From a virus (lineage: Duplodnaviria; Heunggongvirae; Uroviricota; Caudoviricetes): a stretch of DNA of 36,986 bases. A model generated the notes under the pieces. It made no database searches and was not told where the DNA came from. It worked only from the letters and a program-made list of their open reading frames with translations. Positions 412 to 36,986 of the stretch are shown here, piece by piece (the stretch's first letter is position 1; each line of letters opens with the position of its first letter). The position numbers and the translations under genes were made by a program. Location: the IMG/VR virus record IMGVR_UViG_2671180460_000002; one strand, 5' to 3'.

Positions 412-1059
412 TCATGCTGATTTTTTACTTACAGATTTTGTTTCTTGCTCCGGTGTGACATCGGTCTGATCACCCGGCGATTGTGGTCGTATATGAGATT
501 CAACAATTCGCAAAATCTCTCTGTCAGTATCTTCGTTTCCATGTAATGCTACTCGGATTGCATCCTTAAGTGATTTCCTGATATTCAGACTTTGGATAGC
601 ATTCTCTTGCTCCTCCAGCGTGTTAGCGGCTTGTTTCGCTTGCCTAGTGGGTTGTTGCAGACGTTTTAGGATTCCTTTGATACCCATATCACATATTGCA
701 TTTATCAATAGTTCTTTATCTTCTGTGGACGCTCTTTTCAATAACTCGTTAGCTAGCTCGTTTGTAATATCGGGAGAAGGCTGCGCTGTTTGGTTTGATA
801 AAGAGTTTGCTGTGGCGGTGAGTTCCTCACCATAAGCGAGCCAATTTAAACTTACCTGCTCTTTATCTGAGATAAGGCAGGCTATTTTAAAAGAGGGTTC
901 TGTTCCTTTATGGATGTAGTTGTTTAAGGTTGAAGGAGGGATACCCCAGTCGCTCGCGGCAGTTCTGACACTGCGCCCACCTATTAGTTTTACTAAACGC
1001 TCTCTAAAACTTTCTTTTCCTCGGTCAACTAAAGAAAAAGCGTCATCATTTTTTGTCAT
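412..1059 (-). CDS. prophage repressor (Mu c-like position), HTH DNA-binding protein
   Basis: Leftward ORF at the left end, divergent from ner. ATG at 1059 is preceded by AGGAAAGG; the track start at 1092 is a TTG. HTH-like segment ...RSVRTAASDWGIPPSTLNNYI... Confidence 0.6.
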   Translation of the reverse strand: MTKNDDAFSLVDRGKESFRERLVKLIGGRSVRTAASDWGIPPSTLNNYIHKGTEPSFKIACLISDKEQVSLNWLAYGEELTATANSLSNQTAQPSPDITNELANELLKRASTEDKELLINAICDMGIKGILKRLQQPTRQAKQAANTLEEQENAIQSLNIRKSLKDAIRVALHGNEDTDREILRIVESHIRPQSPGDQTDVTPEQETKSVSKKSA

Positions 1060-1192
1060 TTTTCCTTTCCTATTTAACCAATTGATTTTCAATCACAAAA
1101 CTATATAAAGACCAAAAGCAAAAAGAAAATACAAAGAAAAGGCTATTTTTGCTTTACATGGGTTACATATGGATCAATACTTATATCCGAAG

Positions 1193-1241: not shown

Positions 1242-1478
1242 ATGATGGTTAGAAATGAAGTAATGAACCTGGACTGGCACCGCGAGTACATTGTCGCAGC
1301 TGTGCACACCAAAGGTTTTACATTGCGTGAACTGTCTGTTCGCGCTGGTCTAAAAAAAGACTCTTTAAAAAATGCATTGTATCGCTCATGCCCTAAATAT
1401 GAACGCATCATAGCCGATGCTATTGGTGTGGAACCTGCGGAGATCTGGCCAAGCCGGTATGCCAGTAAGGCGGCATAA
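1242..1478 (+). CDS. ner: Ner-like DNA-binding regulator
   Basis: Translation contains DWHREYIVAAV...IWPSRY, matching Mu Ner (DWHRADVIAG...IWPSRY). Stop overlaps the transposase start. Confidence 0.85.
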   Translation: MMVRNEVMNLDWHREYIVAAVHTKGFTLRELSVRAGLKKDSLKNALYRSCPKYERIIADAIGVEPAEIWPSRYASKAA

Positions 1479-3520
1479 TGTTTTATTCAGCCAATGAACT
1501 GGCCGGTCTTACTGGTTTGCCCGGTACAGTTCAGGGGGTGCGCTGGACGCTCAATCGGATCACAGAGACGCACCCGGAATGGAAGCGCAAGCGTGAAGGC
1601 ACCAAAGCATTCGAGTATCACATCGACTGCCTGCCCGCTGAAGCGCAGAAGGTTTTACGTAAGCGCCTGACTCATCAGGTCCTGGAAGATGCACAACTGC
1701 CCGCCGTGGTTGAGCAGAAGGCAGTTAAAAACGTCGCCGTTCGTGATGAACTGGAAGTGATGGTCAAATGCCCGGAACTGGCATTACGCGAAGTTCAGGC
1801 ACTGACCGACAAGCAAAAGGCCATCGCTGATGCGCGGATATTGCTGGCTACCGAAGTGCATAAACTGCGTGAATACGCAAGAATGTCCAGGACGGCAGCG
1901 ATAAAACACATTGTTGATGGTATCCGCCAGGAGGCTTTGCCCGAGCGCGTTATTGTGGCAGGTAATACCGCCAATGCCCGACAGGGTAAGCGAACTGGCG
2001 TCAGTACAGGGAGTTTACAGGAATGGTATTCCGCCTGGCTGATGGCGCGCGGTGATGCCAATCAGTTACTGGCGTTACTGGCTCCCGGTCATCATAAGGG
2101 AACACCGTGGGAGCAGGTTTGGTGGTTGAGCGATTTCTTTATGTTCTATCGCTCATGGAAGCGCCCGACCGTTGAATATGCGTATCGCGAGTTTTCAGCC
2201 TGGTGGCATGAAAAACACGCGAACGATGCGGGAATGCTGGCGGCACTGCCTTCAGTTCACGCAGTAAGACGGGTGTTAAGCAGCGTCCCGGTGATTGTTA
2301 AAGAGCGTTTCCGCTCCACCGGTTCAGCCTGGCGTTCGCTCAATCCCTTTGTGCGACGCGACTGGAGCACATTACCGGTTAATGCGGTATGGGTCGGGGA
2401 TGGTCACTGTATGAAAATGACCGCGTTTAACCCCCTGACCGGCAATATTTTCCGGCCAGAAGTGACGCTGGTTATGGATGCGGGGCAGCGCTTTGTTGTG
2501 GGCTGGTCGCTGTCCCTGTCGGAGAACGTGATAGCCGTTGCTGATGCGTTACGTTACGGCATGGCGCAGCACGGGATACCGCTGATTTATTACTCCGATA
2601 ACGGGGGCGGCGAAAAAAACCGGGTACTTGATGCCGATATTACCGGGATTCTGCCCCGTCTGGGTGTGGAACATCACACGGGGATACCAGGTAACCCACA
2701 GGGGCGCGGGGTGATTGAAAGGCTTAACAAGGAAATTCCCCGGGATGTGGCCCTGAGTTTCCGGACGTACTGCTCAAAGGGAGCAGACAAGGAAACCGTA
2801 ATGATGCAGCAACGGATTATGCAGTCAGCCATTAAGGCCACCCACAAAGGGAAAGAGCTGACAAAACGGCAGGTTAAGTCAAGGGATGAAATCCCCACCT
2901 TTGAGCAACTGATGGCAGCTATAGAGCTGGAGGTCAGACGCTATAACAACCGGCCACACAGCAGCCTTCCCCGCAAAGAGGATGGCGAATATTACAGTCC
3001 GGCAGCGTATCGCCGGAAACTGATAAAAGAACAGAATGTTGAAATTGATTTTCTGTCGCCGGAAGAGCTGCATGAAATGTTCAGACCGGAGGTGACGCGC
3101 AAAACATTTCGCGGGGAAATTCAGTTATTCAACAATATTTATTACTCGTATGAGCTGGCAGCAGAGCACGGAAATGAAGTCAGGGTTTGTTACGACATTC
3201 ACGACGCAAACAGCGTGATTGTCAGGCGGATGGACGGTTCTTATATCTGCGATGCCATCTGGAACGGTAATAAGGTTGATGCGTTCCCGAAAGCTGTTAT
3301 CGAACAGCAGCAGGAGAAACGCGCCAGAGGCCGCATTGCACGGGCCACGCAGAAAATCGAAGAGGCTAAACGCGAGCTTACCCCGGCTATTACGCAGAAG
3401 CCTGACTTTAATTTTGGATGTGGTCTGGAGCGTAAGGAGGAAAAGAAAAAAGAAGAACTTTATTTCTTTGCATCCGAGCGTGACCGCAATTTAAAGAAAG
3501 ACGGCACAAACAACCGTTAA
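1478..3520 (+). CDS. Mu-type DDE transposase (MuA-like)
   Basis: 680 aa, immediately after ner. N-terminal winged-helix-like region followed by a large catalytic core, size and position as for MuA (663 aa). Confidence 0.9.
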   Translation: MFYSANELAGLTGLPGTVQGVRWTLNRITETHPEWKRKREGTKAFEYHIDCLPAEAQKVLRKRLTHQVLEDAQLPAVVEQKAVKNVAVRDELEVMVKCPELALREVQALTDKQKAIADARILLATEVHKLREYARMSRTAAIKHIVDGIRQEALPERVIVAGNTANARQGKRTGVSTGSLQEWYSAWLMARGDANQLLALLAPGHHKGTPWEQVWWLSDFFMFYRSWKRPTVEYAYREFSAWWHEKHANDAGMLAALPSVHAVRRVLSSVPVIVKERFRSTGSAWRSLNPFVRRDWSTLPVNAVWVGDGHCMKMTAFNPLTGNIFRPEVTLVMDAGQRFVVGWSLSLSENVIAVADALRYGMAQHGIPLIYYSDNGGGEKNRVLDADITGILPRLGVEHHTGIPGNPQGRGVIERLNKEIPRDVALSFRTYCSKGADKETVMMQQRIMQSAIKATHKGKELTKRQVKSRDEIPTFEQLMAAIELEVRRYNNRPHSSLPRKEDGEYYSPAAYRRKLIKEQNVEIDFLSPEELHEMFRPEVTRKTFRGEIQLFNNIYYSYELAAEHGNEVRVCYDIHDANSVIVRRMDGSYICDAIWNGNKVDAFPKAVIEQQQEKRARGRIARATQKIEEAKRELTPAITQKPDFNFGCGLERKEEKKKEELYFFASERDRNLKKDGTNNR

Positions 3521-7701: not shown

Positions 7702-8412
7702 ATGAAAGATAAATACATTGCCAAAATCAAAAAACTGTTACGCCTTGCCAGAGGAACATCAAGCCCGGAAGAAGCCGCTAACGCTATTGCAAAAGCCCAG
7801 GCTTATATGCGCCAGCATGGTATCAGCGAAAACGACGCGGAATTGTTCGACATTCAGGAAGCTGCCAGCGCGGGTGCGCCGAGTGATGCCAGTACGCCGC
7901 CGCTTTATATGCACATCCTGTGTGACCTGGTCTGTAAAGCCTTCGGTGTCGAGTGTTACATCTCCGGCGAATACCGGGCTTCTGGTTCACTCAAACGTTA
8001 CGTGCGTTTTTATGGTTCTGACAGCCGCCCGGAAATTGCGGCCTATGCGTTTGATGTGCTTTCCCGTCAGATGATGGCAGAGCGCAAGAAATATCAGGAT
8101 AAACACTGCAAACGTTGTGGTCCGTCCACGCGGGTAGCCCGTGGCGACCAGTTCTGCGAAGGCTGGGCCTTTGGTGCCCGTGACGTGATTACGGTGTATG
8201 ACGTCTCCCCGGAAGAGAAAGGTCGTATTGAGCTTTACCGGCAGAGCCTGCACAGCTCTAAAGGGCTGCGCGAAGGGAATATGCGCACAGCTAAAGCGTG
8301 TCGGGGTGCAGAGTTTGCCGCTACTGCGGGTTTTATCGCCGGGAAAAACGCCAGACTGCATCAGGGGGTTAATGGTCAGAGCAACAGACCGCTGGCACTG
8401 GGGAGGGGATAA
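7702..8412 (+). CDS. hypothetical protein with DUF2786-like N-terminus
   Basis: N-terminus MKDKYIAKIKKLLRLARGTSSPEEAANAIAKAQ resembles the DUF2786 motif common in phage and plasmid accessory genes; from memory. Confidence 0.5.
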   Translation: MKDKYIAKIKKLLRLARGTSSPEEAANAIAKAQAYMRQHGISENDAELFDIQEAASAGAPSDASTPPLYMHILCDLVCKAFGVECYISGEYRASGSLKRYVRFYGSDSRPEIAAYAFDVLSRQMMAERKKYQDKHCKRCGPSTRVARGDQFCEGWAFGARDVITVYDVSPEEKGRIELYRQSLHSSKGLREGNMRTAKACRGAEFAATAGFIAGKNARLHQGVNGQSNRPLALGRG

Positions 8413-8414
8413 CG

Positions 8415-8642
8415 ATGGCTTTTAAACTTCTCAGTGTTACCGAAGCAATATACCAGCCGCCAGGAGAACGCCACGAATACAGGATGAATGACGGCAGCGC
8501 GGCGGTTGAGTTTCCCAAATATCCGGGGGCTTCCCGGTGGCGGTTCTATGACAGTGTGGGACGCCGGATTATTAAAAGAACCGTGCACAACGCCATGAAA
8601 GCCGCTGTAGAACGTCACAAAAGGAGGTTTAACTGCAAATGA
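8415..8642 (+). CDS. hypothetical protein
   Basis: ATG at 8415 preceded by GGGAGGGG. Confidence 0.4.
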   Translation: MAFKLLSVTEAIYQPPGERHEYRMNDGSAAVEFPKYPGASRWRFYDSVGRRIIKRTVHNAMKAAVERHKRRFNCK

Positions 8643-8869
8643 ATATTGAATTTTATAACTATGGGACTAAAGCAAAAATCATTGTTACCTGCTGGCTCTG
8701 GGAGTTTCGCCGCTATAACCGGGTTGTGGATGCGGCGCTGTTTGCGGCCCCTGAAGTGCACCATCAGAGCGGTGGCGGTCTTTTAATGAGAACCGTCATC
8801 TACGGTAAGACGGTCCCGATGTTACGGGCGTTTAAAGTGGCAAAACAGGAGGCTGGCAATGGTCATTGA
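8639..8869 (+). CDS. hypothetical protein
   Basis: ATG at 8639 preceded by AAGGAGG; overlaps the previous stop. Confidence 0.4.
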   Translation: MNIEFYNYGTKAKIIVTCWLWEFRRYNRVVDAALFAAPEVHHQSGGGLLMRTVIYGKTVPMLRAFKVAKQEAGNGH

Positions 8870-9149
8870 TAAAACGATAACGATAGATGTAGCCATGAAT
8901 GCAGGCATCGCTCTTCTCGGTTGGTGTTACATCATGCTCCGCGCCGGGATGTGGCTGTCCCTTGTATTCCTGAAAACATGGAATAAGCACCGTAAACAGA
9001 CGCAGCAGCAGAAGGCAATGAATGCGTTTTTTGAGGCCTTCGATATCGACAGTATAGAGCCGGGAGAACCAACCCGCGTTATCCCCGTAGGTGATGTCGT
9101 GATTTTGGTATACCGGAGTGAAAAGAATGAACAGGAGGTGGCGCAGTGA
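8859..9149 (+). CDS. hypothetical protein with one predicted membrane helix
   Basis: ATG at 8859 preceded by CAGGAGG; hydrophobic stretch AGIALLGWCYIMLRAGMWLSLVFL. Confidence 0.4.
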   Translation: MVIDKTITIDVAMNAGIALLGWCYIMLRAGMWLSLVFLKTWNKHRKQTQQQKAMNAFFEAFDIDSIEPGEPTRVIPVGDVVILVYRSEKNEQEVAQ

Positions 9150-9310
9150 ACCAGCAAACCAGAATAAGCGATAAGAGTCTGACCAGACTGATTGCTGATG
9201 CGGACAAGGTGCTGGAGCGGAACACCCCGGTTGCCGATGAGGAATGGTGGCAGGATTTCCGGGCCGCAATGCTGGAACTTCAGGAACGTCGTCGGGAGGA
9301 GTTGAAGTGA
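9146..9310 (+). CDS. hypothetical small protein (54 aa)
   Basis: GTG at 9146 overlapping the upstream TGA, AGGAGG 8 nt upstream. Not in the supplied track because it is under 60 aa. Confidence 0.3.
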   Translation: MNQQTRISDKSLTRLIADADKVLERNTPVADEEWWQDFRAAMLELQERRREELK

Positions 9311-9330
9311 GCAAGGTGAAAGAGCGCGGC

Positions 9331-10014
9331 ATGATTTTTAATGATGAGATGGTCCGGGCCATCCTCGAAGGAAGGAAGACGCAGACTCGCCGACCTGTAA
9401 AAAATGTCAGGGCCGATAACTGCCTGGTTATCCGTAAACCGACAAAGAAACGCAATGGTGTCTATACCCACGTTATGGATGCACCTGAACATGGTTTATG
9501 CCCGTTCGGTAACGTTGGTGATCGCATATGGGTCCGTGAAGCGTGGGCGATATTAGGCAATGAGGATGGTTGCAGTGTGGACTGGAACGACAACCTTTGT
9601 CGTGGCGATGAGAAGAACGCAGCAAGGATTTATCGGGCCAGTTGTGAGCAAAAACCGGGGGATTATGGCTTATGGTCGATACCCGATGATGCCGACTGGA
9701 AGCCTCACACTGTGAATGAAAAGTTTGATGGTGGGTGGCGTCAATCAATTCACATGCCGCGCTGGGCTTCGCGTATTTTGCTGGAAATTACCGACGTGCG
9801 TGTGGAACGGCTGCATGACATGAGCGAGGCAGATGCTAAAGCGGAAGGTGTATCTCCGGCAACGTACAAAATTACGCCGCCGGAAGCTGTTTATCGCGTT
9901 GGTTTTGGTGATATCTGGCGCGGTATTTACGGGCAAGAGAACTGGCTATCTAACCCGTGGGTATGGGTAATTGAGTTTAAGCGTATTCAGGAGAAAACCA
10001 GTGAGCAAGATTGA
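9331..10014 (+). CDS. hypothetical protein with ASCH-like N-terminal motif
   Basis: MIFNDEMVRAILEGRKTQTRRP...WVREAW resembles ASCH (PUA-like) domain signatures; from memory. Confidence 0.45.
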   Translation: MIFNDEMVRAILEGRKTQTRRPVKNVRADNCLVIRKPTKKRNGVYTHVMDAPEHGLCPFGNVGDRIWVREAWAILGNEDGCSVDWNDNLCRGDEKNAARIYRASCEQKPGDYGLWSIPDDADWKPHTVNEKFDGGWRQSIHMPRWASRILLEITDVRVERLHDMSEADAKAEGVSPATYKITPPEAVYRVGFGDIWRGIYGQENWLSNPWVWVIEFKRIQEKTSEQD

Positions 10015-10594
10015 CTATCAGGCACTGCGAATGGCGGCAGAAAATGCAACACCAGGCGAATGGTGTACTGATGACTACCATGGGGTAATTGCCGATGCCG
10101 GACTGAACGCAAATTACTACATAGCATCATGCTCAGGACCAGATAATCGCTCCAATAAGCGATTCATAGCCGCAGCCAATCCGGCTGCTGTGCTGGTACT
10201 GCTGGATGAACTGGAGTATTACAAATCACGCGAAGAGCGGGTTACAAAGCTGGTTATGGATAACTCGACAAGTTGGGATGCTCTTTACAAGCAGCTGGAA
10301 GCCGCAGAGAAGCGCATAGCAGAACTGGAAGCACGGGAAACAAAACCAGCCAAAGGCGAAGTTCTTGTCGTTGTATCTGGTTTTACTGGTTGCGGAAAAA
10401 GCGCCATTGCCGGGGAAATAGAAATCGCGATGAAGGCTATTGGTGTACCGGTTAAGTGGACTAATGGCGATGCAGAAAAGCGCATGACTGGCGCTGACTG
10501 GCTGACAGCAATTGAGATGTACAAACCAACTGTGCGCATCGTGGAAGTTAATGTGCCACGCGTCGCTGGCATTCGCATCAAAGGAGGTGAGTAG
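10001..10594 (+). CDS. Ead/Ea22-like protein
   Basis: ...ATPGEWCTDDYHGV...NKRFIAAANPAAVLVLLDELE resembles the conserved N-terminal region of lambdoid Ea22-family proteins. GTG at 10001 with AGGAG upstream; alternative ATG at 10031. Confidence 0.5.
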   Translation: MSKIDYQALRMAAENATPGEWCTDDYHGVIADAGLNANYYIASCSGPDNRSNKRFIAAANPAAVLVLLDELEYYKSREERVTKLVMDNSTSWDALYKQLEAAEKRIAELEARETKPAKGEVLVVVSGFTGCGKSAIAGEIEIAMKAIGVPVKWTNGDAEKRMTGADWLTAIEMYKPTVRIVEVNVPRVAGIRIKGGE

Positions 10595-10767
10595 TGCGTG
10601 TGGCATGTATCGGCTTGTTACCGTACCCGACTCGTTTTTGGGCTTCTGCGCTAATTGCAAAGCCGTATGTCCTGATGGCTGACAGCATCATCCCTGCACC
10701 GAAACGCCGTACAGGCATTGCGGCGGCGAGACGAGCAGCAAAGAAACGCAGGAGAACAAAACGATGA
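10594..10767 (+). CDS. possible small basic protein (57 aa)
   Basis: GTG at 10594 with GGAGG 7 nt upstream; stop overlaps the next ATG. Weak. Confidence 0.2.
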   Translation: MRVACIGLLPYPTRFWASALIAKPYVLMADSIIPAPKRRTGIAAARRAAKKRRRTKR

Positions 10768-10946
10768 AAAACCGTAAGGCAAAAATTCTGTTAGCTCGCA
10801 GAAACGGTGTTGGGATCTGGCGATGGTTGAGGATTAGTAACAGACGAGTGAGGTTGACGGGGTGTTGCGGGGTGATGGGGCACAGCTGTTGCAAAAAGCC
10901 CAGCGCGGCGCAAAACCGCTGGAAGAATCACACTAACGCAAAGTAA
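10764..10946 (+). CDS. possible small Cys-rich protein
   Basis: 60-aa ORF, ATG overlapping the previous stop; weak. Confidence 0.2.
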   Translation: MKNRKAKILLARRNGVGIWRWLRISNRRVRLTGCCGVMGHSCCKKPSAAQNRWKNHTNAK

Positions 10947-11013: not shown

Positions 11014-11292
11014 ATGAAGATTGAACAAATCGGAATGGCAGCCTTCCGGCAACAGGCTGAAAGCGGTGGTGTGGATGAGTTCGTCGTGCAGCGGTTCGGT
11101 GGTGTGTATCACCTCTTCGCTGTGAATCGCCGCGCCGGGGTGTCCTATTTTCTACAGGAACGCCGTGGCGATTACAAGACGTGGCTGTCTCTTGACCGTG
11201 CCGCCGCGTTCCTGTCGGGGATTGGTGTTTCTCGTTTTACCGTGCGTTTTGAGGATAACAAACATGCTGAAAAAGATGATCGGAGCCATTAA
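11014..11292 (+). CDS. hypothetical protein
   Basis: ATG at 11014 after the twin palindromes; the track start at 10978 lies inside the palindrome. 3' end overlaps the GemA-like gene in another frame. Confidence 0.35.
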   Translation: MKIEQIGMAAFRQQAESGGVDEFVVQRFGGVYHLFAVNRRAGVSYFLQERRGDYKTWLSLDRAAAFLSGIGVSRFTVRFEDNKHAEKDDRSH

Positions 11293-11677
11293 AGCCGGTC
11301 AGGCGTATCTGGGGTGGGATGATGCCCTTTATCGCCAGACACTGGCTCGCCTGACCGGTAAAACCAGCACCACACGCTGCAATCTCGATGAACTGCGCAT
11401 CATCCGGGAATACATGCACGAACAGGGATTTCCGCGCAAAGCGCCCGCCGGTAAAGGTCGCCGCCCCCGTGTTGCAATGAGCAGAAAATCGGTATTATCC
11501 AAAATTGAGGCGTTGCTGGCTGATGCCGGTCGTTCCTGGGCGTATACGGAAGGACTGGCATCTCACATGTATAAGCAACATGTGATCGAATGGCTGACAG
11601 ATGATCAACTGTTCGGGGTGATGGTGGCGCTGACAAAAGACGCCAGAAAACGAGCCAGAGCAGCACGTAAACAATAA
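11264..11677 (+). CDS. GemA-like protein (DUF1018-type)
   Basis: N-terminus ...AIKAGQAYLGWDDALYRQTLARLTGKTSTTRCNLDELRIIREYMHEQGF matches the GemA/gp16 pattern; position just upstream of the Mor/C gene as in Mu. Confidence 0.55.
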   Translation: MLKKMIGAIKAGQAYLGWDDALYRQTLARLTGKTSTTRCNLDELRIIREYMHEQGFPRKAPAGKGRRPRVAMSRKSVLSKIEALLADAGRSWAYTEGLASHMYKQHVIEWLTDDQLFGVMVALTKDARKRARAARKQ

Positions 11678-11772: not shown

Positions 11773-12240
11773 ATGCAGACCTTCAGTGAAACAGATCTTC
11801 GCGATGCGCAGGCACTACTGCCCGATTCCGTGCAGCAACTGATTAGCGTGATTGGCTTTCCCGCTCTGACCCGGTTAATTCGTTCTTTTGGTGGTGTGAC
11901 GTTAAGCGGTAAAACCGGCGCACACACCGAACGCACCGGCGGTGTCCATGCCCTGTTACATGACGTGCTGACCGAAGACGAAATCAACAAACTGATCCGC
12001 TTTCTTGGCGGTGCGCCGTTTTATATTCCCCGTTGCGATCATGCGTTACGTGCCCTGCGTAACTCCCGTTTTATGGCTGATTTACAGCAACATATAAAAG
12101 GCGGATGCTCACACCGGCAGGCGCTGGCACTGCTTTGTCCACGTTACGGAATTTCAGACCGGTACGCATGGCAACTGATACACCGACGACAAAAACAGAT
12201 TTCGCTGAAGAGCCCCACCCAGGTGGGGCTTTTTGATTAA
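11773..12240 (+). CDS. Mor/C-family transcriptional activator (late gene activator)
   Basis: Contains the Mor-family ...GGAPFYIPR... segment followed by a C-terminal HTH-like region; located after the early terminator and before the lysis and structural genes. Confidence 0.8.
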   Translation: MQTFSETDLRDAQALLPDSVQQLISVIGFPALTRLIRSFGGVTLSGKTGAHTERTGGVHALLHDVLTEDEINKLIRFLGGAPFYIPRCDHALRALRNSRFMADLQQHIKGGCSHRQALALLCPRYGISDRYAWQLIHRRQKQISLKSPTQVGLFD

Positions 12241-14938: not shown

Positions 14939-15679
14939 ATGCAAAAACAGATTATTGGTAACGCAACGTTGTATTGCGGTGATGTTCTTGATGTGCTGCC
15001 GGCGTTATCTGAACGTTTTGATGCCGTCATTACCGACCCGCCTTACAGCAGTGGTGGCACACACAAATCAGACCGCAGTATGGCCCCTTCGGACAAGTAT
15101 GTCGGTCACACCCACTATGCCGAGTTCAGCGGGGATAACCGCGACCAGCGCAGCTGGGCATACTGGAGCACCCTGTGGATGTCCGGGGCTGCCCGCCTTG
15201 TGCGCCCCGGTGGTTATTTCATGGTGTTCAGTGACTGGCGACAGCTTCCCACCATGACCGACGTTTTTCAGGCCGGTGGTGTGCTGTGGCGTGGTCTGGT
15301 TGTCTGGGATAAAACGCAGGCTTCCCGTGCGCCACACACTGGCTATTTCCGGCATCAGGCCGAGTATGTGGTCTGGGGCAGCAACGGAAAACTCGACAAA
15401 TGCCCGCACGGTGGCCCGTTCCCGGGTGTGATTACGCAGCGTGTTGTCCCGTCCGCAAAACTGCACATGATCGCAAAGCCGGTTCAGCTGATGGCCGAGC
15501 TGGTTAAACCGCTGGCACCGGATGCGCACGTTCTCGATCCGTTTATGGAAAGTGGCACCACCGCCATCCCTGTACTTGCCCGTGGCGGACGGTTTACCGG
15601 CATTGAAATGACTAACCAGTATTTTGATATCGCCTGCGCACGTATCGAAAAAGCGCAGGCAGAAGCAGCGCAGGTGTGA
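14939..15679 (+). CDS. DNA methyltransferase, beta-class amino-MTase (N6-adenine or N4-cytosine)
   Basis: Motif IV DPPY (AVITDPPYSSGG) near the N-terminus and motif I (LDPFMESGTT) near the C-terminus; this order defines the beta class. No restriction partner nearby. Confidence 0.85.
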   Translation: MQKQIIGNATLYCGDVLDVLPALSERFDAVITDPPYSSGGTHKSDRSMAPSDKYVGHTHYAEFSGDNRDQRSWAYWSTLWMSGAARLVRPGGYFMVFSDWRQLPTMTDVFQAGGVLWRGLVVWDKTQASRAPHTGYFRHQAEYVVWGSNGKLDKCPHGGPFPGVITQRVVPSAKLHMIAKPVQLMAELVKPLAPDAHVLDPFMESGTTAIPVLARGGRFTGIEMTNQYFDIACARIEKAQAEAAQV

Positions 15680-35605: not shown

Positions 35606-36130
35606 ATGGAACTCAGAAACGTCACACGTTATTACCCTGAAAATATGCCTTATGGTGAAAATATTCAGTATTTCCGCAGTAAAGACGGACATGATTTTTA
35701 TGAATCACAGGATAAATTCACGAAGAAATACAAATTGTGTATTCACCCTGAAACCGGCGTGATTTATTCAATGGCGGAAGACGTTTCCCGTCTTTATCCT
35801 GTTGGTTTTACCATTGTGGAAGTGGACGAATTGCCTGAAGGGTTTGGTATTGAAGCCAGCTGGTATTACCGGGACGGCGAAGTACTGCCGGTGCCCGTTG
35901 ATTACCCACGATTATCAGAAAAACAACGCCAGCGTCTGCTGAATGAAGCAAAGGACATCACTTCTGACTGGAAAACCGAACTGGAGCTGGGCACCCTCAG
36001 CGATGATGACAAAGCCCGTCTTACGCAGTGGATGGAATATATCAAAGCGGTAAAGGCGCTGGATTTAAGTCAGGTCATTGATGAATCTTCCTTTTATTTA
36101 ATTCAGTGGCCGGAAAAACCTGACGTGTAA
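35606..36130 (+). CDS. tail fibre assembly protein (Tfa/U-like)
   Basis: ATG at 35606 after AAGGAG; about 175 aa directly downstream of the fibre gene. Confidence 0.75.
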   Translation: MELRNVTRYYPENMPYGENIQYFRSKDGHDFYESQDKFTKKYKLCIHPETGVIYSMAEDVSRLYPVGFTIVEVDELPEGFGIEASWYYRDGEVLPVPVDYPRLSEKQRQRLLNEAKDITSDWKTELELGTLSDDDKARLTQWMEYIKAVKALDLSQVIDESSFYLIQWPEKPDV

Positions 36131-36136
36131 AACAAT

Positions 36137-36166
36137 AACGGTCGCTGTCTGGCGACCGTTTTCAGT
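36137..36166 (+). terminator. putative intrinsic terminator after the tfa gene
   Basis: 9-bp stem AACGGTCGC/GCGACCGTT with a 6-nt loop, followed by a T-rich TTCAGTT. Confidence 0.5.
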
Positions 36167-36177
36167 TCAGAGGCTTT

Positions 36178-36986
36178 ATGTCTGTATTAATTTCAGGTGC
36201 ACTTGTTAATGGCACTGGCGTTCCGATGGCGGAATGCAAAATTTATTTAGATGCACTGGTTAATACCAGTGAAGTGGTTATTGAATCATTTGCGGTTATT
36301 GAAACCGATGCGGCGGGACAGTATGCCTTTGAAGCGCAGACAGGAAAATATGCCGTTCATATAAAACAAAAGAACGGCCCGAAATGTTGCGTGGGGAATA
36401 TTGCTGTTTATGACGATTCAAAGCCCGGCACGCTGAACGACTTTCTGACCGCCCCCGATGAAGGCGACCTCAAACCCGACGTGGTAAAACGCTTTGAGGA
36501 AATGGTGGCACAGGCGCAGCAGAGCGCAGAAGCCGCCGCTGGCAGCAAACAACAGGCAGGACAACACGCCACTGATGCACAGCAGATTAAGGCCGACTGT
36601 CAGGCGCTGGCGAAAGACGTACAGCAGAAAGCCGACGCGGTTGCGGAGGGTAAACAACAGGCCGAAAATCTGGTCTCACAGGTTGAGAATGCCGCCGAGG
36701 AGGTAAAAAAGGACGCTGAAGCTGCTAAACAGGCCGCATCTGATGCAGAGCATGTCAGGGAGGATATTGACACCGCGTTATCTGCGACACTGAAAACGGC
36801 GAATCGTTTATCAGAGCTGGCTGATGAAGGTGAAGAGGCTCAGCAGGAATCCCGTGATAATCTTGGACTGAAAAGCGCAGCCACGATGACGCCACAGAGC
36901 GACATTCGCGACCGGACTGAAGGCCGTCTGGCGACACCTGGCGCATTTGGTTTTGGGCATATTTTTCTGCCCGCAGAGCGTATCCG
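36178..36986 (+). CDS. side tail fibre protein, lambda Stf-like N-terminal domain (3' partial, runs off window)
   Basis: MSVLISGALVNGTGVPMAECKIYL...GKYAVHIKQ...IAVYDDSKPGTLNDFL...PDVVKRFEEMV parallels the lambda Stf N-terminus. No stop in window, so absent from the supplied track. Confidence 0.8.
   Translation, partial: MSVLISGALVNGTGVPMAECKIYLDALVNTSEVVIESFAVIETDAAGQYAFEAQTGKYAVHIKQKNGPKCCVGNIAVYDDSKPGTLNDFLTAPDEGDLKPDVVKRFEEMVAQAQQSAEAAAGSKQQAGQHATDAQQIKADCQALAKDVQQKADAVAEGKQQAENLVSQVENAAEEVKKDAEAAKQAASDAEHVREDIDTALSATLKTANRLSELADEGEEAQQESRDNLGLKSAATMTPQSDIRDRTEGRLATPGAFGFGHIFLPAERI

Follow-up and report, generated by a model that had tools for sequence, protein, structure and literature searches.

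The stretch of phage DNA analysed here, 36,986 nt long and called the window throughout (IMG/VR record IMGVR_UViG_2671180460_000002), is a Mu-type transposable prophage with two overlapping genes of interest in its early region. The upstream open reading frame, ORF A (9316..10014), encodes an ASCH-fold protein of the PmgT family with 232 amino acids (aa) if translation begins at the GTG at 9316, and the downstream one, ORF B (10001..10594), encodes a 197-aa Ead/Ea22-like family protein with a GTG start (VSKIDYQALR...). Both are on the plus strand, as are all of their features given below. They overlap by 14 nt, and a preliminary description of the window had presented them as a translationally coupled, co-expressed pair. 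We consider it likely that they are instead two independent accessory genes of a Mu-type early operon, which mosaic recombination has juxtaposed at the Shine-Dalgarno (SD) sequence of a gene boundary.

Start sites and the overlap

The ASCH-like frame is open from 9244 to 10014 and closes with a TGA stop at 10012-10014. Three in-frame candidate starts lie in window 9307-9333: GTG 9307, which has a GGAGG SD and a GTGA overlap with the stop of the upstream gene, GTG 9316, and ATG 9331. The gene callers used for public assemblies differ, some taking GTG 9316 (232 aa) and others GTG 9307 (235 aa). We favour GTG 9316 because homologues begin with M/V-KERG, and the protein read from this codon matches their N-termini (M/V-KERG-MIFN). 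The true start is probably one of these two GTG codons and not ATG 9331, which would then be an internal methionine. Of the preliminary coordinates, the overlap and the ends of both genes are therefore retained, while the ASCH start at 9331 is probably to be moved upstream. Residues of ORF A are numbered from ATG 9331 throughout. An AGGAG SD for ORF B is found within ORF A at 9988-9992, 8 nt before GTG 10001.

The ASCH fold and candidate active site of ORF A

The match of ORF A to Pfam ASCH (PF04266) fell below the gathering score (17.0 bits against 21.2, E = 0.0096, over 26 residues). NCBIfam gave no match, phmmer and two profile searches of PDB sequences found nothing significant, and the PHROGs match was phrog_874, a family of unknown function. 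Among 125 diverse family members, chosen as representatives at 50% identity, 27 matched Pfam ASCH at E<=0.01 (best 1.2e-4), and ASCH was the only Pfam family matched by more than one of them; the Pfam model does not cover the insertion-bearing branch to which ORF A belongs. An AlphaFold2 model built from the 125-sequence alignment reached a predicted local distance difference test score (pLDDT) of 86.9 and a predicted template modelling score of 0.82, as against a pLDDT of 53 from a shallow alignment of 50 close homologues. ORF A is predicted to adopt the beta-barrel/alpha fold of ASCH proteins, and Foldseek returned YqfB as the top match to the model, along with viral models named 'ASCH domain protein'. 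These findings and the octapeptide described below bear out the ASCH label of the preliminary description. On the basis of the model, they support placing ORF A, with its ASCH fold, in the very large PmgT-like family of phage proteins. The ASCH assignment is not new, since some close homologues are already named 'ASCH domain-containing protein' by PGAP.

A profile made from 50 homologues retrieved 52,071 representative clusters (50% identity) at E<=1e-3 and 19,530 at E<=1e-30. The family is present in 349 phage records, with hosts from Enterobacteria to Salinibacter, Myxococcus, Flavobacterium and Akkermansia. PmgT-like proteins are a huge branch of the ASCH superfamily, carried by phages of many bacterial phyla and largely unannotated. 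PmgT of phage P1 is a direct homologue of ORF A, with ~92% DNA identity over the N-terminal 500 nt and ~69% protein identity; it differs in its length of 309 aa, its C-terminal extension, its own C1-controlled promoter and its neighbours pap and pmgU. The P1 protein is labelled 'putative morphogenetic function', and many database homologues have inherited the name 'morphogenetic protein'. Nothing found in this analysis supports that label, and pmgT was dispensable in CRISPR interference screens (PMC10695390).

The residues that suggest a function begin with the ASCH octapeptide GRKTQTRR (9370..9393). It reads G14-x-K16-x-x-T19-x-R21 and, by conservation and by alignment with YqfB, is of the 'GKTR' type found in that protein. 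Its position near the N-terminus (aa 14-21) and its spacing agree with the rule G-x-K-x-x-[E/T/S]-x-R by which the motif is defined (bioRxiv 10.64898/2026.02.27.708502). The literature ties the threonine form, GxKxxTxR, to YqfB-type N4-acetylcytidine (ac4C) amidohydrolases; the GKER form is the commoner one. Further along, a DAKAEG segment (9832..9849) holds E172, the equivalent of the catalytic Glu74 of YqfB, and D168 in place of its His70. Two family-specific insertions separate these elements: the first (aa 23-57; 9397..9501) is missing from YqfB and varies between homologues, and the second (aa 75-135; 9553..9735) is variable and partly deleted in some homologues. Many representatives of the family match the profile in two stretches. 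Between the second insertion and the DAKAEG segment lies a basic and aromatic block, SIHMPRWASR (9745..9774), which is nearly invariant in the family and has no counterpart in YqfB. Across the 125 diverse members, K16, R20, E70, R148 (in this block) and E172 are invariant, and G14, T19, R21, D168 and the SIHMPRWASR block are at least 90% conserved.

When the full-length family was compared with YqfB in hhalign, the octapeptide alone was aligned, with Prob 18%. With the insertions removed (cut here as aa 25-57 and 77-135), the family core aligned with YqfB end to end over 97 columns at 28% identity, pairing K16 with K21, T19 with T24, R21 with R26, E172 with E74, D168 with H70, Y200 with Y89 and the terminal VIEFK strands with each other. 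In YqfB, the substitutions K21A, T24A and R26A abolish activity and E74A lowers it 100- to 1000-fold (PMC6972931). By sequence and structure alignment, ORF A has the complete Lys-Thr-Glu triad and the Arg oxyanion residue, as K16, T19, E172 and R21. The Escherichia coli YqfB (PDB 9KYF/1TE7), an ac4C amidohydrolase, is thus like ORF A a 'GKTR' ASCH protein; it is smaller, at 103 aa compared with 227-235 aa for ORF A with its two insertions and SIHMPRWASR block, and it is not phage-borne. According to the preprint that defines the octapeptide, GK[T/S]R proteins occur in bacteria, archaea and some eukaryotes, and viruses are mentioned under the GKER subgroup only (bioRxiv 10.64898/2026.02.27.708502).

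From these residues, the most likely function of ORF A is that of a YqfB-like Lys-Thr-Glu (+Arg) amidohydrolase, whose substrate would be of the N-acylated cytosine or cytidine type, free or in RNA. The two insertions and the invariant SIHMPRWASR block would alter its specificity. Several points weigh against this proposal. We infer enzymatic activity from alignment and conservation. The substrate-contact residues of YqfB are not kept throughout the family, His70 being Asp168, and Tyr89 being retained as Tyr200 in ORF A and replaced by Asn in the family consensus; because of these two changes, the substrate predicted for ORF A may differ from that of YqfB. Finally, some ASCH proteins with an intact motif are inactive on ac4C or act as RNases.

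The same fold could also serve a non-catalytic, PUA-like reader of modified RNA or DNA, as in the classical views of ASCH, EVE and YTH proteins. The PUA-like/ASCH fold of ORF A agrees with this, as do the names 'RNA binding protein' and 'PUA domain-like protein' that some annotators have given to its homologues, and the DNA methyltransferases (Dam, D12) that sometimes directly adjoin homologous genes. We nevertheless regard a reader as unlikely: the Lys, Thr, Arg and Glu residues of YqfB catalysis are invariant or nearly so across a family that spans many phyla, which is the pattern expected from selection on an active site, and in a 2026 preprint all 19 ASCH proteins tested removed ac4C from tRNA. 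A hydrolase appears more probable than a passive reader on the conserved residues. That ORF A is a single-strand RNA nuclease like ZmASCH seems to us highly improbable.

The Ea22-like gene and its junction with ORF A

ORF B matches Pfam Ead_Ea22 (PF13935) over residues 2-113 with E = 6.1e-21 and 75.9 bits (cut-off 27), and a database protein that is 100% identical from the 10001 start (P0121) carries the NCBI name 'ead/Ea22-like family protein', so that the Ea22 label is confirmed. Profile searches, the check proposed in the preliminary description, returned an ASCH match (below the gathering score for ORF A itself) as well as an Ea22 match, so that the refuting outcome named there, a lack of such matches, did not arise. 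The matched region (10004..10339) comprises the N-terminal domain and a short helical, coiled-coil-like stretch. Residues 88-113 (…LYKQLEAAEKRIAELEARE) look helical and heptad-like, and we read them as a putative coiled coil by analogy with the architecture of lambda Ea22 (PMC10834534).

The Ea22 proteins of lambda and Shiga toxin (Stx) phages are built from an N-terminal domain, a coiled coil that forms tetramers and a C-terminal domain that varies (PMC10834534). They favour lysogeny (PMC7093339, PMC10834534), and the earlier statement that Ea22 proteins have no assigned function is outdated. ORF B has the same order of an N-terminal Ead/Ea22 domain, a helical segment and a variable C-terminal domain, and is likewise an early-transcribed, non-essential accessory gene. 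It differs in belonging to a Mu-type early operon, whereas lambda Ea22 lies in the lambdoid exo-xis region, and its C-terminal domain is another module than the one solved for lambda Ea22 by nuclear magnetic resonance. Against PDB chains, ORF B gave only weak matches to P-loop regions (E>=0.39), and the lambda-type C-terminal domain was not among them.

At the DNA level ORF B is a mosaic, resembling lambdoid Ea22 genes over 9989-10215 (93%) and phiV10, D6 and others over about 10295-10700 (96%). The C-terminal module of ~65 aa (aa 118-186; 10352..10558) lies in this second homology block, is swapped independently of the N-terminal domain and belongs to no Pfam family. It contains GFTGCGKS (GxxGxGKS; 10379..10402), a Walker-A-like motif that fits the pattern GxxxxGK[ST]. 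In a four-way alignment with identities down to 30%, G127, G130, G132, K133 and S134 are invariant. Homologues of the module include gp37 of Burkholderia phage BcepC6B and proteins of jumbo Burkholderia and Ralstonia phages (30-47% identity). They occupy N-terminal, central or C-terminal positions in different domain contexts (L090:517-1113, L091:112-1149, L092:112-1371), and all preserve VVVxGxxGxGKSA and a TVRIVE-like hhhhE with an invariant E182. The TVRIVE segment could be Walker-B-like on its sequence. Matches to P-loop families were sub-threshold (AAA_16, E = 0.012; APS_kinase, 0.054), with AAA_16 at 7.9e-4 for BcepC6B gp37, and the module falls far short of the size of a canonical P-loop NTPase with its five or more strands and Walker B motif. 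We suggest that ORF B probably has a role like that of lambda Ea22: it would be an oligomeric protein, made early, that shifts the developmental state of host or phage. Its small Walker-A-like domain may bind a phosphate or nucleotide ligand.

In P1-like and ~48-kb phage-plasmid contexts, the gene immediately after the ASCH homologue often encodes a PAPS-reductase-family (PP-loop) protein, and the next gene product carries the Walker-A-like C-terminal module of ORF B; DUF968 and a metallophosphoesterase are found upstream. This ASCH/PAPS-reductase neighbourhood recurs (L006, L007, L009, L012, L014, L061, L065, L076, L077; L085:2176-3048) and might hint at nucleotide or nucleic-acid chemistry.

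The 14-nt overlap itself is explained by the sequence at the 5' end of the Ea22 gene. This leader (9986..10035) carries the AGGAG SD, GTG 10001 and stops in both other frames, as GTGA at 10001-10004 and as ATTGA, which gives the TGA at 10012-10014 (ATTAA in some leaders). An alignment of junctions shows the leader, AAAGGAGGCAACCAGTGAGCAAGATTGACTATCAG, to be conserved, while sequences further upstream differ according to the neighbouring gene. Because it has stops in both alternative frames, an upstream gene of any frame ends 4 to 14 nt into Ea22. As a consequence, the upstream ORF overlaps or abuts Ea22 in all 25 distinct 5' contexts that we collected, ending 4 nt (12 contexts), 14 nt (4), 7 nt (4), 8 nt (1) or 1 nt (1) inside it or abutting it (3); besides the window, the leader is seen at L093:~880-960, L094:~890-970 and L004:~3040-3120. 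In PhiR49_2 and PhiR12_1, both lambdoid phages, an unrelated ORF of 105 aa likewise runs 14 nt into the Ea22 gene. The closest E. coli prophage (STEC308, L004:2810-3070) has an unrelated 86-aa ORF in place of the ASCH gene, and this ORF overlaps a nearly identical Ea22-like gene by 8 nt, which shows a recent cassette replacement at this site. The overlap is a built-in feature of the Ea22 cassette, whatever adjoins it upstream.

Homology breakpoints coincide with the leader, at about 9989-10008. The ASCH gene shares DNA homology with Yersinia phage YpM_41, with the Mu-like PhiR68_1 and with P1 as far as ...AAGCGTATTCAGGA; this end point is the SD, so that the last seven codons of ORF A (EKTSEQD*) come from the Ea22 leader. 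The tails of homologues beyond VIEFKRI are variable, in agreement with an ORF A end supplied by the leader. The temperate-phage mosaic joints of the Hendrix type switch homology blocks in the same manner, at a gene border and within ~20 nt of SD/start microhomology. The one unusual point here is that, with a stop in each of the other two frames, the Ea22 leader accepts upstream genes in any frame. RNA folding of the junction (z-score 0.20; SD and GTG unpaired in the centroid) revealed no structure that would tie initiation at Ea22 to translation of the gene before it. Ribosomes finishing any upstream ORF probably re-initiate at the Ea22 GTG, a coupling that would be generic and not specific to ASCH.

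The neighbours of ORF A homologues are correspondingly diverse. We surveyed 79 viral loci with such a homologue and found roughly 45 clusters of downstream neighbours. The 58 distinct proteins encoded immediately downstream included, by Pfam, DUF1382 (6), PAPS_reduct (6), Ead_Ea22 (3), zf-dskA_traR (2), Dam (1), D12 methylase (1) and others. Upstream neighbours were equally varied, with DUF968 (6) the most frequent, followed by RecT, lambda P and others. Part of the 1,264-bp region was found in 1,239 of 5,426 complete E. coli genomes and the contiguous pair in none; genomes with both halves have roughly 250-760 bp of other genes or sequence between them. The exact ASCH-Ea22 arrangement occurred on 13 contigs, all of one Mu-like lineage. 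Direct ASCH-Ea22 adjacency is rare, and the pair is not conserved.

Some observations run counter to the independence of the two genes. In 30 of the 79 ASCH loci, the 3 kb downstream contain an Ea22-like gene on the same strand; this is a raw count, uncorrected for a background rate and made by single-sequence phmmer with the Ea22 N-domain, which missed L011. The 79 loci are the best-scoring relatives and not a random sample. Direct adjacency was seen in three viral loci, L011 and L013 among them, as well as in the window. A loose ASCH-Ea22 neighbourhood association therefore exists, and it may mean no more than that accessory regions are syntenic among related enterobacterial phages.

Could the two genes nevertheless form a dedicated, translationally coupled module, in which, for example, ASCH would read phage-methylated nucleic acid and Ea22 would act on the signal? 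The overlap with its internal SD is genuine, the same prophage carries a DNA methylase, Ea22-like genes often lie a few genes 3' of ASCH homologues, and in L011 and L013 the two are directly adjacent. We consider such a module very improbable, and largely refuted already by the neighbour census: the overlap-forming leader accompanies unrelated genes upstream of Ea22, at least 40 different neighbours follow ASCH homologues, the nearest relative prophage has no ASCH gene at this site, the contiguous pair is absent from all the complete E. coli genomes, recombination has its breakpoint at the junction, and the methylase is 5 kb off in another transcription unit. The overlap thus cannot be taken as the mark of an ASCH-Ea22 partnership, and the adjacency counts, with 3 Ea22-like proteins among 58 downstream neighbours and 0 contiguous pairs in 5,426 genomes, went against it. 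What lies here is an ordinary mosaic joint, and the two genes do not make up a functional unit.

Prophage context and implications

The Mu transposase A, B, Ner-like, GemA and Mor proteins of the window were all identified. A CI-type repressor (412-1092, minus strand) is encoded near the left end, and a Ner-like helix-turn-helix protein is also present. Mu transposase A (1478-3520; Mu-transpos_C and HTH_Tnp_Mu_1) is followed by the AAA+ B protein and DUF3164. GemA (about 11264-11677) and Mor (11773-12240) come next to the right, then a holin and an endolysin, DUF1804, an N6_N4 DNA methylase, a large terminase ORF and the head and tail genes. The methylase (14939-15679, plus strand; PF01555, E = 2.8e-20) has DUF1804 on one side and the terminase ORF on the other, the listed start of which (15624) overlaps the 3' end of the methylase gene.

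The ASCH-Ea22 pair belongs to the 'semi-essential' early region that separates B from GemA and that in Mu-like phages is a row of small accessory genes (cf. the annotated Mu-like phage PhiR68_1). From 8412 to 10946, nine junctions in a row show either a gap of at most 2 nt or an overlap of 1-14 nt (spacings include +2, -4, -11, -4, -4, -14, -1 and -4), with a clear SD at most of them. Because both genes share this tightly packed operon, their co-expression is near-certain, and trivial. Two small ORFs of 57 and 60 aa (10594-10946, plus strand), which overlap by 1 nt and 4 nt, prolong the chain 3' of Ea22; neither has a Pfam match, and the first ends in a very basic C-terminus, RRAAKKRRRTKR. On the minus strand, a 207-aa ORF with a TTG start (8832-9455) lies antisense to DUF4752, to orf54 and to the beginning of ORF A; since the plus-strand genes are conserved, it is probably spurious. 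In one prophage copy that is identical in other respects, a Y1_Tnp (IS200/IS605-type) transposase gene is inserted between GemA and Mor (L088:4353-4811).

The preliminary description had also raised, as speculation, a connection between the ASCH protein and a phage methyltransferase. The methylase is present; the connection remains pure speculation, given that the gene lies 5 kb away in the late region and that ORF A has the residues of a hydrolase. A link to modification of the Mu Mom type was considered and dropped: the right end has no mom-like ORF, and the late N6_N4 methylase is the sole modification gene. Unlike in Mu itself, no mom/com-like genes follow the tail-fibre assembly gene (36130-36986), an interval whose plus strand has no ORF of at least 50 aa except one 70-aa TTG ORF and which may be the prophage end or host flank. 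PADLOC found no relationship to defence systems.

A start/stop overlap in a packed phage operon is no evidence of partnership, and the coupling of the two genes as originally put forward matters little. Two by-products carry some weight: the portable leader of Ea22-type genes, which accounts for the overlaps described above, and the finding that the PmgT family consists of insertion-bearing, YqfB-type ASCH proteins with an intact catalytic set, which raises the hypothesis of N4-acyl-cytidine amidohydrolase activity for a large unannotated phage family, thousands of whose database entries bear the PmgT-derived label 'putative morphogenetic protein'. Tentatively, and well short of thinking it probable, we propose from the sequences that PmgT-like proteins would be active YqfB-type amidohydrolases, phage-encoded RNA-modification 'erasers' that strip N4-acetyl or other N-acyl groups from cytidines of host tRNA and rRNA or from nucleoside pools, and, separately, that the C-terminal module of ORF B would be an autonomous Walker-A phosphate-binding domain. 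The lasting interest of this locus lies in that biochemical hypothesis for the PmgT-like ASCH proteins and in the small Walker-A-like module of this Ea22 variant.

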